Assembly (NCBI GenBank): GCA_046582565.1
Contig: JAYGED010000075.1
Coordinates: 4,876 to 68,875, forward strand
Direction: 5' to 3'
Source of the DNA: Alphaproteobacteria bacterium
GTDB lineage: Bacteria > Pseudomonadota > Alphaproteobacteria > JAAXGF01
Length of the DNA: 64,000 nucleotides
Shown: positions 54,407 through 61,051 of the stretch, piece after piece
Position numbering within the stretch: position 1 is the first letter of the stretch
How the letters are laid out: every line of letters starts with the position of its first letter
Translations under genes and position numbers: made by a program
Notes under the pieces: model-generated
The model's database searches: none
What the model saw: the letters and a program-made list of their open reading frames with translations, nothing else
Told to the model about the DNA's origin: nothing

Positions 54407-54787
54407 ATGACCGATAAGGTGATCACGCGGTTGCTGCCTGACGGAGCGCTGGACGGCGGCATGAAGCCGATGGGCTACATAGACCCCGACACCGTCGTTG
54501 ACGGGGTCGAATTCGACGAACGGGGGCATCTGTTCTTCACTAACGCAGCTGGCAATGTAAACGCCGGCGTGTGGCAGTGTTCGCCCTGCACGGAACAGAT
54601 CAGCGATTATCCCTATGATCAAGTTTGCTTCGTTCTCGAGGGTTCGATTACCATCACGGATAAAAGCGGCCATGCTGAGATGTTCGGGCCGGGCGATTCC
54701 TTCTCCATCCCCCGCGGCTTCAATGGTCTTTGGCAGATGACCGAGCGCTACAAGAATTATTTCGTAACCGTGGAACCGGAGCCTTGA
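54407..54787 (+). CDS. Cupin-domain protein (cupin_3/DUF861-like)
   Basis: Started at the ATG at 54407, the protein is MTDKVITRLLPDG...GVWQCSP...FVLEGSITITD...FGPGDSFSIPRGF.G.W. This start gives about 126 aa and is in frame with the track ORF 54338..54787. Confidence 0.62.
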   Translation: MTDKVITRLLPDGALDGGMKPMGYIDPDTVVDGVEFDERGHLFFTNAAGNVNAGVWQCSPCTEQISDYPYDQVCFVLEGSITITDKSGHAEMFGPGDSFSIPRGFNGLWQMTERYKNYFVTVEPEP

Positions 54788-54846
54788 TAGCCTGATGCCG
54801 GGTGATGAGCCTATCGTCATTGCGCCAAAGAATAAGGACTTAGCAG

Positions 54847-55146
54847 ATGTATGAGATCGACCCGTCGCGAACCGACCTGGCCGAGGAATTCAAGAAAAAT
54901 CCCGGCGGCCCTTATAGCCCCGAACTCACGCTGGTGGTCAACCGGCTGCGCCTGGGGCCGATGGAGGAGCGCACCATCATGGTCTGCACCAAGCGCGGGC
55001 GCGAATGGACCCTGGCGAAAATGCCGACGGTTCGTGGCGCCAAGCTGGAATACTACGAGGACCTCGTGTTCGACGACTACTATGACGCCGCCAGGGAAAT
55101 TTTCCGCATGCGCTGGCATACGGTGACCGGCCAAGAGCTGGCATAA
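54847..55146 (+). CDS. Hypothetical 99-aa protein, possibly the small-subunit partner of the downstream amidase-like protein
   Basis: The ORF lies 26 nt upstream of the 736-aa gene, in an operon-like arrangement. I recognise no family for it. Confidence 0.45.
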   Translation: MYEIDPSRTDLAEEFKKNPGGPYSPELTLVVNRLRLGPMEERTIMVCTKRGREWTLAKMPTVRGAKLEYYEDLVFDDYYDAAREIFRMRWHTVTGQELA

Positions 55147-57394: not shown

Positions 57395-60300
57395 ATGACC
57401 ATACGGCTGGCTATCGATATCGGCGGTACTTTTACCGACCTGGTGTTGGATCGGGACGGGACCCGCACGGCGACTAAGCTGCTTACCACGCCGGAGCGCC
57501 CGGCTGACGGTATCATGCAGGGCATAGAGCAAATCCTCGGCGAGTCGGAGACCAACCTCGGCGATGTGGACCTCATCCTGCACGGCACCACCCTGGCGAC
57601 CAACGCGCTGATCGAGCGCAAGGGGGCGCGCACCGCCCTGATCGTCACCGAGGGCCATCGCGATTCCGTCGAGATGGCCTATGAAAACCGCTTCGACCAA
57701 TACGACATCAATGCCGAGAGGCCGCCGCCCCTGGTGCCCCGCGCCTTGCGGTTGCCGGTCGCTGAGAGGATCAATTTCAAGGGCGAAATTCTCACCCCCC
57801 TCGATGAGCAGTCGGTTCGGGCGCTGATCCCGGACTTACGCGAGGCCGGGGTGGAGAGTGTCGCCATCGGCCTGTTGCACGCCTACGCCAACCCGGCCCA
57901 TGAGAACCGGGTAGGGGTGATCATCGCCGAGGCCCTGCCCGAGTTGTCGATCTCCCTGTCCTCGGACGTCTGCCCCGAAATCCGCGAATACGAGCGCCAA
58001 TCCACGACCTGCGCCAACGCCTATATCCAACGGCTCATGGCCGGCTACCTCACCGACCTGGAGCAGCGTCTGGCGGCGGACAATTTCCACTGCCCGCTGC
58101 TGCTGATGACCTCGGGCGGCAATGTGGTGACGGTGGAGACCGCCGTGCGCTATCCCATCCGACTGGTCGAGTCCGGGCCCGCCGGCGGCGCCATCATGGC
58201 GGCCCATATCGCGCGCCGCCTGGGCGAGGACAGTGTCTTCTCCTTCGACATGGGCGGCACCACCGCCAAAATATGCCTGATCGACCATGGCGAGCCGCAG
58301 CTCAGCCGGGGCTTCGAGGTTGCCCGCGCCCACCGCTTCATGAAGGGCAGCGGCATGCCTATCAAGGTGCCGGTGGTCGAGATGGTCGAGATCGGCGCCG
58401 GCGGCGGCTCCATCGCCTCGGTCGATGACCTTGCGCGCATCCGGGTCGGGCCGGAGAGCGCCGCCTCCGATCCGGGTCCGGCCTGCTACGGCCTGGGCGG
58501 CGACCGCCCGACGGTGACCGACGCCAACCTGATCGCCGGCCGCCTCGATGGGGAACATTTCGCCGGCGGGCGCATGAGCCTGGACGGGGCGGCGGCAGAG
58601 ACCGCGGTGCGGCGTGAAATCGGCGAGCCCTTGTCCCTTCAGACCATCGACGGGGCGCTCGGTATCCTGGAGGTTGTCGACGAGAACATGGCCAGTGCCG
58701 CGCGGGTCCATGCGGTCGAGCGCGGCGAGGAGATCGAAGGCCGCACCCTGATCGCCTTCGGCGGCGCCGGCCCCCTGCATGCCGCGCGCCTGGCCGAGAA
58801 ACTCAGCATCGACCGCATTATCGTACCCAACAACGCGGGCGTCGGCTCGGCCATCGGGTTTCTGCTGGCGCCGGTCGCCTATGAGGTGGCGCGCAGCAGC
58901 TACATGCGCCTGGACGAATTCGATCCCGCGCCCATAAACGCCGCCTTCGAGGCCATGGCGGCGGAAGCGGAGGCGGTGGTTCGCCTGGGTGCTGCGAACG
59001 AGGAATTGACCGAGCGGCGCTACGCCTTTGCCCGCTATGTGGGCCAGGGCCACGAAATCAAGATCGTGGCGCCGGTGCGTACCCTGGGCAAGGATGACGG
59101 CGAGGCCCTGCGGCTCGCCTTCGAGACCGCCTATGGCGAACAATACGGCCGCGCGGTGCCCAGCCTGGCCGTCGAGGTCTTGACCTGGTCCCTGACCCTG
59201 TCCGCTCCATCACCGGCCATGGATGGCAGCGCTTCTGAAACGCCGACGCCGCGTAAGCCACAGGCCGAAGGAGTGCGCAGCATGCGCCTGCCCGGCCGCG
59301 GCGCCGAGATGGACGCCAAGACCTACGATCGAACGGCGCTGGCCGCCGGAGACCACATGGCCGGCCCCGCCGCGATCACCGAGGCGCAGACCACGACCAT
59401 CGTCCCCGACGGCTTCACCGCGCGGCTCAACGGCGATGGCGATATTATTCTTGAGCGGGCAGGCGCCAGGACCGGCGTCGTCCCCGAAGGCGCCGTGCGC
59501 AATCAAATCCTCTGGGATCGCCTGATCGCCATCGTCGAGGAGCAGGCGCAATCGATTATCCGCACCGCCTTCTCGACTACCGTGCGCGAGGCCGGCGATC
59601 TTTCCGCCGGGCTGTTCGATCTGCGCGGCCGCATGCTGGCCCAGGCGGTGACCGGCACGCCGGGTCATGTCAACGCCATGGCCGCGGCGGTGCTGTTCTT
59701 TATGGAGAAATATCCGATTTCGACCATGGCCGAGGGCGATGTGTTCGTCACCAACGACCCCTGGCACGGCACCGGCCATCTGTTCGATTTCACGGTGGTG
59801 TCGCCGGTCTTCGTCAAGGGGGCGGCGGTCGGCCTGTTCGCCTCGACGGTTCATGTGGTCGATATCGGCGGGCCGGGGTTCGGGCCGGACGCGGGACAGG
59901 TCTATGAAGAAGGGCTCTGCATCCCGATCATGCATCTGTTTAGGGGCGGTGTTGCCAACGAAAGCCTGTTCGACATCGTGCGCGCCAATGTGCGCGAGCC
60001 GGTGCAGGTGACCGGCGATCTCTACTCCCTGGCCGCCAGCAATGGCGTCGGCGCAGCCCGGCTGGCCGCCCTGATGTCCGAATTCGGCCTCAACGGCCTG
60101 GAGTCCATCGGCGATCACATCATCGAAAAATCCCGTGCCGCCATGATCGATCATATCCGCGCCCTGCCCCCTGGCCGCTACAGCAACGCCATGACCGTCG
60201 ACGGCTACGAAAGCCCGGTGCATATAGAATCTCAATTGACGGTGAGCGATGAGGGCATCGAGGTCGATTTCAACGGCAGCTCAGCCATGTCGCCCTACGG

Positions 60301-61051
60301 CATCAATGTGCCGATCACCTATGCCCAGGCCTACGCCTCATTCGGCATTCGCTGCGTGGTCGGAAGCTCAATCCCCAACAACACGGGCTCCCTGTCGCCA
60401 ATCCAAATCACAGCCCCCGAGGGCTGTATCCTCAACGCCCCGAGGCCGGCCGCGGTTACCGTGCGCCATGTGATCGGCCAGATGCTGCCCGACGTGGTGC
60501 TCGGCGCGCTTGAGAAGGCGCAGCCGGGGATCGCCCCCGCCGAGGGCTCGTCAAGCCTGTGGAATCCCATGCTGTCGGGCGGACACGGCATGGTCGGCGA
60601 TCATGAGTACGGCGACGCGCTGCCCTTCTCGGTGACCGTGTTTCATTCCGGCGGAACCGGCGCCCGGCCGACCAAACACGGCCTGTCGGCGACTGCCTTC
60701 CCTTCCGGCGTGCGCAATACCCCGGTCGAGATCACCGAATCCATCGCGCCGATCCTGTATATGCGCAAGGAATACCGAACCGGCTCCGGCGGGGACGGGT
60801 CGTACCGGGGCGGCGACGGCCAGGTCATCGAAATCGAGCATGCCCAGGGCGCGCCCTTTGCGGTGTTCGCCCTGTTCGACAGGATCGACCACCCGGCCCG
60901 GGGCCGCAATGGCGGCGGCAATGGAAAGCCCGGCCAGATTCGCCTGGCCAGCGGCGCCACCCTCAAGGGCATGGGCAAACAAATCGTCCCCGCCGGCGAC
61001 CGCCTGATCCTGAAACTCCCCGGCGGCGGCGGCTTGGGCAAGCCCAAATGA
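57395..61051 (+). CDS. Fused hydantoinase/oxoprolinase A-B (HyuA-HyuB, 5-oxoprolinase-like ATP-dependent amidohydrolase)
   Basis: The protein is 1218 aa. The N-terminal 700 aa or so form a Hydantoinase_A region (MTIRLAIDIGGTFTDL...), and the C-terminal 500 aa or so form a Hydantoinase_B region (...DPWHGTGHL.D...). Confidence 0.85.
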   Translation: MTIRLAIDIGGTFTDLVLDRDGTRTATKLLTTPERPADGIMQGIEQILGESETNLGDVDLILHGTTLATNALIERKGARTALIVTEGHRDSVEMAYENRFDQYDINAERPPPLVPRALRLPVAERINFKGEILTPLDEQSVRALIPDLREAGVESVAIGLLHAYANPAHENRVGVIIAEALPELSISLSSDVCPEIREYERQSTTCANAYIQRLMAGYLTDLEQRLAADNFHCPLLLMTSGGNVVTVETAVRYPIRLVESGPAGGAIMAAHIARRLGEDSVFSFDMGGTTAKICLIDHGEPQLSRGFEVARAHRFMKGSGMPIKVPVVEMVEIGAGGGSIASVDDLARIRVGPESAASDPGPACYGLGGDRPTVTDANLIAGRLDGEHFAGGRMSLDGAAAETAVRREIGEPLSLQTIDGALGILEVVDENMASAARVHAVERGEEIEGRTLIAFGGAGPLHAARLAEKLSIDRIIVPNNAGVGSAIGFLLAPVAYEVARSSYMRLDEFDPAPINAAFEAMAAEAEAVVRLGAANEELTERRYAFARYVGQGHEIKIVAPVRTLGKDDGEALRLAFETAYGEQYGRAVPSLAVEVLTWSLTLSAPSPAMDGSASETPTPRKPQAEGVRSMRLPGRGAEMDAKTYDRTALAAGDHMAGPAAITEAQTTTIVPDGFTARLNGDGDIILERAGARTGVVPEGAVRNQILWDRLIAIVEEQAQSIIRTAFSTTVREAGDLSAGLFDLRGRMLAQAVTGTPGHVNAMAAAVLFFMEKYPISTMAEGDVFVTNDPWHGTGHLFDFTVVSPVFVKGAAVGLFASTVHVVDIGGPGFGPDAGQVYEEGLCIPIMHLFRGGVANESLFDIVRANVREPVQVTGDLYSLAASNGVGAARLAALMSEFGLNGLESIGDHIIEKSRAAMIDHIRALPPGRYSNAMTVDGYESPVHIESQLTVSDEGIEVDFNGSSAMSPYGINVPITYAQAYASFGIRCVVGSSIPNNTGSLSPIQITAPEGCILNAPRPAAVTVRHVIGQMLPDVVLGALEKAQPGIAPAEGSSSLWNPMLSGGHGMVGDHEYGDALPFSVTVFHSGGTGARPTKHGLSATAFPSGVRNTPVEITESIAPILYMRKEYRTGSGGDGSYRGGDGQVIEIEHAQGAPFAVFALFDRIDHPARGRNGGGNGKPGQIRLASGATLKGMGKQIVPAGDRLILKLPGGGGLGKPK

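Follow-up and report, generated by a model that had tools for sequence, protein, structure and literature searches.

A dimethylformamidase-type gene cassette very probably inserted into the 5′ end of a resident hydantoinase gene in an alphaproteobacterial genome

We analyzed a 64,000-nucleotide (64-kb) stretch of contig JAYGED010000075.1 from an alphaproteobacterium (hereafter the window), in which four genes follow one another on the forward (+) strand: a Cupin_3 gene, the genes of homologues of the small (α) and large (β) subunits of N,N-dimethylformamidase (DMFase), and the gene of a fused hydantoinase A-B of the HyuA/HyuB or 5-oxoprolinase type. The locus is very probably a composite, consisting of an inserted three-gene DMFase-type cassette and an unrelated, resident hydantoinase gene that is normally monocistronic. 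The module most likely represents an uncharacterised marine clade of Fe(III)-dependent amide hydrolases with a Tyr/Tyr/Glu metal site, which probably now shares its transcript with this hydantoinase. Their pairing appears to be a product of the insertion that is confined to one population, not a conserved system.

The Cupin_3 gene (54407-54787) encodes 126 residues counted from its ATG codon, although the mechanically called open reading frame (ORF) starts from GTG 54338. It is followed by the small-subunit gene (54847-55146, 99 residues), the large-subunit gene (55173-57383, 736 residues, TTG start) and the hydantoinase gene (57395-61051, 1218 residues). Since homologues of the large subunit start with MKKI..., the TTG start is supported. 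All four ORFs are intact and lie on the + strand with spacings of 59, 26 and 11 nt, so that the coordinates and gaps given in the initial annotation were reproduced, and its four domain assignments were all borne out by Pfam, profile and fold searches. None of the three spacers between the genes contains a terminator-like site, and apart from a tRNA gene, no Rfam element, riboswitches included, was found in 52500-62200. Nine independently assembled contigs from other samples (loci L048 and L057-L064 in our numbering) match window positions 53400-62100 at 99.7-99.9% identity, gap-free except for one gap in L061, and cover both junctions of the cassette. Since these contigs carry the same gene order, the arrangement is real, and an assembly artefact was ruled out as its origin. 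The order of cupin, small subunit, large subunit and hydantoinase was found only in such copies of one population, which are more than 99.7% identical.

The insertion is revealed by the same chromosomal site in close relatives. In L045, L046 and L047, whose hydantoinases are 82% identical to that of the window, the gene order is L21 (- strand), tRNA-Ser, hydantoinase, DUF1674 (- strand), rsmB and rpe, with no cassette, and the left flank consists of iPGM, rsfS, nadD, proA, proB, obg, L27 and L21. L056, with a hydantoinase that is also 82% identical, shows the same succession of L21, tRNA-Ser, hydantoinase, DUF1674 and rsmB without the cassette. L044 keeps hydantoinase, DUF1674 and rsmB, has other genes upstream and likewise lacks the cassette. 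The closest non-identical relative is L055, whose hydantoinase is 89% identical. The flanks of the window are the same as those of the relatives, with L21 (52938-53459), tRNA-Ser, DUF1674 and rsmB. The window is collinear with L045-L047 from L21 to the 3′ end of the tRNA-Ser gene (53689-53778, +; anticodon CGA; predicted by ARAGORN and matched by the Rfam tRNA model at 58 bits), which is the last uninterrupted feature on the left side (alignment A3).

Beyond the tRNA gene, the window retains the native upstream region of the hydantoinase gene (54165-54264, +), with the ribosome-binding context AGAGAGATGCAATTC before an ATG codon. In L055, the sequence adjoining the hydantoinase start on its upstream side is the counterpart of this segment, whose last ~20 nt also align with L045-L047; in the window, the segment now stands 3.1 kb from its former gene. 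Between the two, a 3.06-kb cassette of the cupin, small-subunit and large-subunit genes (54331-57390, +) is enclosed by a 70-nt direct repeat (family D2). The left copy (54261-54330, +) corresponds to positions -4 to +66 of the hydantoinase gene and encodes MTIRSAIDIGGTYTDLLLDRGG, and the right copy (57391-57460, +) starts 7 nt past the stop codon of the large subunit and forms the functional 5′ end of the hydantoinase gene. A repeat search and pairwise alignment gave 89% identity between the two copies. Both have derived bases in common relative to L055 and L046, whereas unique changes number about six in the left copy (four of them amino-acid changing) and one in the right copy. Since derived bases are common to both copies and the changes are mostly in the left one, the duplication seems to have arisen in situ, with the left copy being a decaying remnant. 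The common derived bases also disfavour a donor-derived left repeat, as would have resulted if a circular molecule with the 5′ end of a foreign hydantoinase gene had integrated by a single crossover.

The cassette opens with a 76-nt leader (54331-54406, +) preceding the cupin ATG. Homology of the cassette to other genomes extends only from the cupin ATG (or within ~12 nt of it) to the large-subunit stop codon; the leader had blastn homology to none of the 43 related loci described below, and no promoter-like site was found in it. A hairpin at the left junction (54338-54362), considered as a recombination site, folds no better than shuffled sequence (z = 1.14) and was rejected. No integrase gene was found between 53779 and 62100, and the repeats listed do not include one of the tRNA 3′ end. 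A genomic island at tRNA-Ser was thus rejected, as the insertion also lies inside the hydantoinase gene, ~550 nt from the tRNA. No donor was identified, the closest large subunit being only 79% identical.

We propose that the cassette entered the hydantoinase gene at about codon 22 and that the first 66 nt of the gene, together with 4 upstream nt, were duplicated in situ. The native promoter and ribosome-binding site would thereby have come to precede a dead 5′ remnant, with an intact hydantoinase gene starting at a distance of 11 nt from the large-subunit gene. The old hydantoinase promoter probably drives joint transcription of all four genes, and the intact hydantoinase would most likely depend on read-through across the cassette; as judged from the sequence, such four-gene co-transcription is plausible in this genome. 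Since the hydantoinase gene stands alone in relatives, the juxtaposition is better read as the product of an insertion than as a sign of a shared pathway. A cassette-free relative (L045) and a cassette-bearing genotype (L063) were both assembled from sample ERZ27248910, and thus the two lineages coexist.

The 736-residue protein is a full-length homologue of the DMFase large subunit DmfA2, and the profile search agrees with the initial call. It contains Pfam DMFA2_C (E = 1.6e-86) and Laminin_G_3 (E = 1.3e-15), and its residues 4-730 form a single alignment with residues 6-757 of PDB 6lvb_A (E = 7e-158), which covers the three-domain architecture of DMFase large subunits (Ig-like, LamG-like and catalytic DMFA2_C domains). 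PDB 8huy matches residues 3-730 (E = 1.1e-140), and the identity to DmfA2 of Paracoccus aminophilus is 40.5%. In the cited passages on the DMFase structure, the active site is a mononuclear Fe(III) on Y399, Y440 and E521, H519 and N547 are essential (PMC7686228), and F693 from the neighbouring subunit narrows the pocket (PMC7686228; bioRxiv 10.1101/2019.12.17.879908). Residue mapping places Y377, Y417, E493, H491, N519 and F666 of the window protein at the positions so described for Y399, Y440, E521, H519, N547 and F693, respectively, and all six are identical. Thus the Tyr/Tyr/Glu iron site anticipated by the initial annotation is present at Y377, Y417 and E493, where a mononuclear Fe(III) is predicted to bind. 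Among 33 full-length marine relatives, the mapped residues are invariant save for the gate Phe, which is Leu in six. We also take E657 of DMFase, which the cited passages do not name, to be an active-site residue, and its counterpart E630 in the window protein is identical and likewise invariant among the 33 relatives. Large-subunit homologues on plasmids of cultivated organisms are all at most 44% identical to the window protein, whose group appears to be a separate, uncharacterised clade of the DMFase family. The PGAP name for such large subunits is 'N,N-dimethylformamidase beta subunit family domain-containing protein'.

The 99-residue protein, initially put forward as a possible small partner, turned out to be a DMFase small subunit by family label, profile, fold and gene order. 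Local Pfam, NCBIfam and single-sequence PDB searches gave no match for it, but its precomputed Pfam label is PF26354 'DMF_alpha'. Its 414 close homologues are nearly all 99-100 residues long, and every named one is a 'hypothetical protein'. The family profile gave 6lvb_B as the top PDB match (E = 0.0065, residues 8-93 against 41-127), and hhalign aligned the family with P. aminophilus DmfA1 across 90 columns (E = 1.3e-4) and, at 99.4-99.5% probability, with 108- and 112-residue 'hypothetical proteins' preceding DmfA2-like genes on two plasmids. The AlphaFold2 model (pLDDT 90, pTM 0.81) had significant Foldseek matches only to 6lvv_B, 6lvb_B and 6lvd_B, the next match having E = 0.4; the best two superposed with TM scores of 0.76-0.77 and root mean square deviations of 1.8-1.9 Å over 92 columns. 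This fold was previously undescribed, as stated in the cited part of the DMFase structure paper (PMC7686228).

A search of 1.84 billion representatives with the 99-residue domain yielded 366 clusters. Several of these are natural fusions (P0369, P0371, P0381 and P0387; 813-872 residues) that join an N-terminal DMF_alpha-like domain to a DMFA2_C large subunit, which indirectly suggests that the subunits interact. Several shorter sequences, apparently contig-end fragments, start like these fusions. By analogy with the Paracoccus enzyme, the small and large subunits most likely form a heteromeric amide hydrolase. The first ~35-40 residues of Paracoccus DmfA1 are missing from the 99-residue protein: the first aligned position is residue 36-41 in DmfA1 and residue 3-8 in the window protein, and the model shows no long N-terminal helix. 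In DmfA1, this helix wedges between two large subunits and contacts domain II, according to the same passages (PMC7686228).

The closest described system is Paracoccus DmfA1/DmfA2 (EC 3.5.1.56; PDB 6LVB/6LVC/6LVV; P. aminophilus plasmid pAMI2), whose genes stand in the same order, small then large. The large subunits are alike from end to end in domains, Fe ligands and gate Phe, and the small subunits share the same otherwise unique fold (TM 0.76). The window small subunit differs in its length (99 versus 132-141 residues) and in the missing N-terminal helix, and the window genes are 26 nt apart, whereas the Paracoccus genes overlap by 4 nt. On pAMI2, dmfA1-dmfA2 are flanked by a LuxR gene and insertion sequence (IS) elements, but there is no LuxR gene at the window pair, and about half of the window-clade loci carry a Cupin_3 gene with the pair. 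The hosts of the window clade are uncultured, known from metagenome-assembled genomes (MAGs) and metagenome contigs, several of them marine-named, in contrast to the DMF-degrading sludge isolates. N-acetyl-(R)-β-phenylalanine acylase (8HUY/8I59/8I5A) is another full-length homologue, showing that the family also cleaves N-acetyl amines, but the PDB table gives one chain type with no small subunit evident, and nothing at the window points to an aromatic β-amino acid substrate. In all sequence and fold features tested except the N-terminal helix of the small subunit, the cassette thus looks like a member of the DMFase family.

The 126-residue protein belongs to Pfam Cupin_3 (EutQ-like, formerly DUF861), with E = 1.3e-14 and 54.1 bits against a gathering cut-off of 23.5. 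Its only PDB sequence matches are uncharacterised cupins, 3bcw (the best, 3.7e-10), 3myx and TM1112, and no close characterised member was found among the Cupin_3/EutQ-like cupins compared. By eye, without a tool-based test, the classical His-X-His and the second-motif His metal ligands are not present in the sequence.

The 1218-residue hydantoinase contains, in a single chain, Hydant_A_N, Hydantoinase_A, Hydant_A_C and Hydantoinase_B (Pfam E values from 1e-13 to 2e-140) and aligns over its full length with the fused N-methylhydantoinase PDB 7hk5 (E = 5e-165). The same four domains occur in the fused N-methylhydantoinase 7HK5/9H03, in eukaryote-type 5-oxoprolinase and in CapAB. However, it falls far below the equivalog cut-offs for caprolactamase (CapA, NF050156, 489 bits, and CapB, NF050157, 149 bits, against 1000) and for acetophenone carboxylase (ApcA, ApcC and ApcD, 301, 203 and 68 bits, against 1250-1500). 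The protein is predicted to be an ATP-dependent cyclic-amide hydrolase of the 5-oxoprolinase/N-methylhydantoinase type; by family default, its substrate would be 5-oxoproline or an N-substituted hydantoin. Unlike the known systems, it belongs to a widespread stand-alone clade with variable neighbours, very large (at least 8000 proteins at E ≤ 1e-50), drawn largely from uncultured bacteria, and 65-70% identical. Its relatives at this identity elsewhere adjoin unrelated genes such as FA_hydroxylase and TauD. In L057, a single G-to-T change in the gene (9549-13205, equal to window 57395-61051) creates a stop at codon 715, which divides the protein into a 714-residue A part and a 489-residue B part. 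The split may be tolerated, given that hydantoinases often consist of two separate subunits in nature, or it may indicate relaxed selection.

When one genome per species was scanned, 43 loci emerged whose large subunits are 67-81% identical to that of the window, from MAGs of Alpha- and Gammaproteobacteria, Acidobacteriota, Acidimicrobiia, Gemmatimonadota and Gaiellales. The small-subunit gene stands immediately upstream of the large-subunit gene in all 37 loci that have upstream DNA. A cupin gene adjoins the pair in 20 of the 35 assessable loci, upstream on the same strand in 11 and downstream on the opposite strand in 9 (35-43% identity), and the Cupin_3 protein is a frequent but non-obligatory companion of the DMFase-like pair. 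In contrast, no hydantoinase gene lies downstream of the large subunit in any of the 35 assessable loci, and a hydantoinase-family match within ~10 kb occurs in only 3 of the 43. The co-conservation proposed in the initial annotation therefore holds for the small and large subunits but not for the hydantoinase, and its conserved four-gene pathway finds no support in these counts or in the cassette-free synteny of the relatives. In the literature searched, we found no paper pairing a dimethylformamidase with a hydantoinase.

The neighbours that do recur at the 43 loci are PotD-like binding proteins (14 loci) with ABC components and a BetI-type TetR regulator, M24 creatinase-like proteins (11), Rieske oxygenase α subunits (11), molybdopterin oxidoreductases (10), flavoproteins like trimethylamine dehydrogenase (TMADH; 9) and S15 CocE/NonD hydrolases (8), followed by PhyH, methyltransferases, MTTB, GFA and DUF1989. 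The cupin, small-subunit and large-subunit genes of L031 are immediately preceded (4377-6440) by genes of the agmatine deiminase family (PAD_porph, 5.6e-94) and of the CN-hydrolase family (4.4e-54), to which N-carbamoylputrescine amidase belongs. These neighbourhoods look like a setting of small-amine, osmolyte and polyamine catabolism. None of the recurrent families (PotD-like binding proteins, M24, Rieske, TMADH-like and the others) was found in the 64-kb window, and thus the cassette arrived bare. The window clade is strongly conserved and looks horizontally spread, with identities of 67-81% across phyla.

Many genomes carry two paralogous small/large pairs (L016/L023, L036/L040, L026/L041, L005/L025 and L032/L039), and L017 has two copies. 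One paralogue clade, at 71-81% identity to the window protein, either has its cupin gene upstream or lacks one. The other is 67-68% identical, has the cupin gene downstream on the opposite strand, and possesses a conserved upstream block of TMADH-like flavoprotein, methyltransferase, Rieske oxygenase and CocE/NonD hydrolase genes. This division suggests that the two clades may act on two different substrates.

If the enzyme works like its Paracoccus relative, Fe(III) held by Y377, Y417 and E493 would polarise the amide carbonyl with the assistance of H491 and N519, and hydrolysis of a stable small amide would release an amine together with formate or some other short carboxylate. The small subunit may stabilise the large subunit and help to form the substrate entrance, as the cited passages describe for the family (PMC7686228). 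In the cited portion of a preprint, the Paracoccus DMFase accepts formamides only, and F693 is proposed to exclude larger amides (bioRxiv 10.1101/2019.12.17.879908). At the gate position, the window clade has Phe, whereas Asp is found in two plasmid paralogues whose neighbours are of polyamine type, suggesting different specificities. Since the gate Phe (F666) is kept, we tentatively favour, with low confidence, a small N-alkylformamide-like substrate over a bulky one or an N-acyl-polyamine.

Several observations weigh against this account as a whole. The cassette has no integrase, transposase or other recombinase of its own to go with the 70-nt duplication. Selection for co-expression could be the reason why the hydantoinase was preserved intact, with a gap of only 11 nt and a good Shine-Dalgarno sequence. 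In L017 (7750-14032, - strand), split hydA-hydB genes lie directly upstream of a second small/large pair in the same orientation. They are 36% (hydA) and 29% (hydB) identical to the window hydantoinase, and no other locus among the 43 has a hydantoinase beside the pair; an occasional functional link to hydantoinase-family enzymes is thus conceivable. The identity to proven DMFases is only ~40%, and the solved relative 8huy is an N-acetyl-β-phenylalanine acylase, so that the substrate may belong to a different class. Without the wedging N-terminal helix in the small subunit, the quaternary structure may also differ.

Two other assignments of the cassette enzyme are possible, each less likely than not to hold by a wide measure. 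The first is that the cassette encodes a true N,N-dimethylformamidase, converting DMF or N-methylformamide to formate and methylated amines. The two-subunit organisation and the retention of the DMFase catalytic residues together with the specificity-gating Phe are in line with it, and DmfA-annotated proteins have been detected in Pacific (ocean) metaproteomes (PMC9477243). The TMADH- and dimethylamine dehydrogenase (DMADH)-like flavoproteins, MTTB-family methyltransferases, GFA and molybdopterin oxidoreductase at related loci would also fit the use of methylated amines. However, the window protein is no closer to proven DMFases, at ~40% identity, than to paralogues of unknown function, its small subunit is truncated, and the 64-kb window has no methylamine-utilisation or transporter genes with the cassette. 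Moreover, DMF is described as not known in nature in the cited portion of the preprint (bioRxiv 10.1101/2019.12.17.879908), and we consider this assignment doubtful.

The second, which we also regard as unlikely, is that the pair is an N-acyl-amine or N-acyl-polyamine amidohydrolase that acts on N-acetyl- or N-formyl-putrescine, cadaverine, spermidine or an osmolyte-derived amide and feeds amine catabolism. The PotD-like solute-binding proteins of the 14 loci are often encoded directly upstream of the cupin, and the agmatine-deiminase-family and CN-hydrolase genes of L031 stand in the same position. A spermidine/putrescine ABC transporter (L051) and glutamine-synthetase-family and aldehyde dehydrogenase genes (L050) lie beside small/large pairs, and the family includes the solved N-acetyl-amine acylase 8huy. 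On the other hand, the neighbourhoods are heterogeneous, there is no transporter beside the window cassette, and the Asp of the plasmid paralogues with the clearest polyamine context is replaced by the gate Phe in the window clade.

It is improbable that the four genes form one catabolic operon, in which the hydantoinase would open a cyclic amide, hydantoin or lactam and the DMFase-like enzyme and cupin would cleave the linear N-substituted amide, or the reverse. The common strand, the 59/26/11-nt gaps without a terminator-like site between genes, the stability of the arrangement across nine assemblies and the shared orientation of hydA-hydB-small-large in L017 are all compatible with such an operon. 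Creatinine catabolism uses an N-methylhydantoinase, and the M24 creatinase-like genes near the pair in 11 loci could be read in this light. In the nearest relatives, the hydantoinase gene nevertheless occupies this same chromosomal site by itself, and the adjacency was made by an insertion with a 70-nt duplication. In addition, a fused hydantoinase follows the large subunit in 0/35 loci, any hydantoinase-family match occurs in only 3/43, the L017 genes are merely 29-36% identical to the window hydantoinase, and other members of the hydantoinase clade have unrelated neighbours. We give still less credence to an adaptive insertion, in which ring opening of an N-substituted cyclic amide by the hydantoinase followed by Fe(III)-dependent cleavage of the linear amide would constitute a new two-step route; if this were true, the split hydantoinase, small and large genes of L017 would represent independent convergence on the same pairing. 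Least likely of all, the cassette may be hitch-hiking or decaying DNA that serves no purpose in this genome at present, as the usual transporter and regulator neighbours did not come along and L057 has the nonsense change in the downstream hydantoinase, but its three ORFs are intact with conserved catalytic residues, it is 99.8-99.9% identical and gap-free across independent assemblies, and a family identity of 67-81% across several phyla implies strong constraint.

An inserted DMFase-type module beside a resident hydantoinase gene remains the best account of the locus. Pfam already has families for both DMFase subunits, and the literature that we found on dmfA2 consists only of papers on DMF degraders. 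DMF is described as a synthetic solvent that is not known in nature, which raises the question of what the DMFase family does naturally. With a whole DMFase active site, a short small subunit, a frequent cupin and an amine, osmolyte and polyamine context, the window clade is a good target for finding the natural substrate of the family. The locus is also a clean example of an 'operon' built by insertion into the 5′ end of a gene and revealed by close relatives, and it calls for caution in annotation, as tight spacing and a shared strand are not proof of a pathway.

On the 3′ side of the hydantoinase gene, the segment 61051-61890 (+; inverted repeats I1, I3, I4 and I5) contains REP-like palindromes and an IS200-like, RAYT-like Y1 transposase gene (61142-61819; Pfam Y1_Tnp, 4.8e-14), which is flanked by the palindromes ATTAAGTAAGGTGTCCCCTTAAT at 61051-61105 and 61812-61885. 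This element is not present between hydantoinase and DUF1674 in L044-L047 and L056, and it looks like a REP/RAYT unit; relative to these loci, it is a second insertion next to the hydantoinase. A degenerate REP-like sequence (family D1) at 54222-54248 (+) is also found in L055. To the right of the hydantoinase, relatives have a conserved DUF1674-family gene, which in the window (61913-62077, - strand) encodes a 54-residue protein homologous to the L046 copy, the Pfam label being that of the L045-L047 copies. The mechanical ORF of rsmB (61995-63425, from TTG 61995) overlaps this gene on the opposite strand; a start at the equivalent of 62100 (441 residues), as called in the identical contig L048, is more likely. 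The spacer between tRNA-Ser and the hydantoinase gene differs from that of L045-L047 and includes a stretch at ~53897-53965 that reads MWYVYFLHLNNDDVYVGSTNDLK and then a stop. By eye, this resembles the N-terminus of a GIY-YIG nuclease-family protein and may be a gene remnant.

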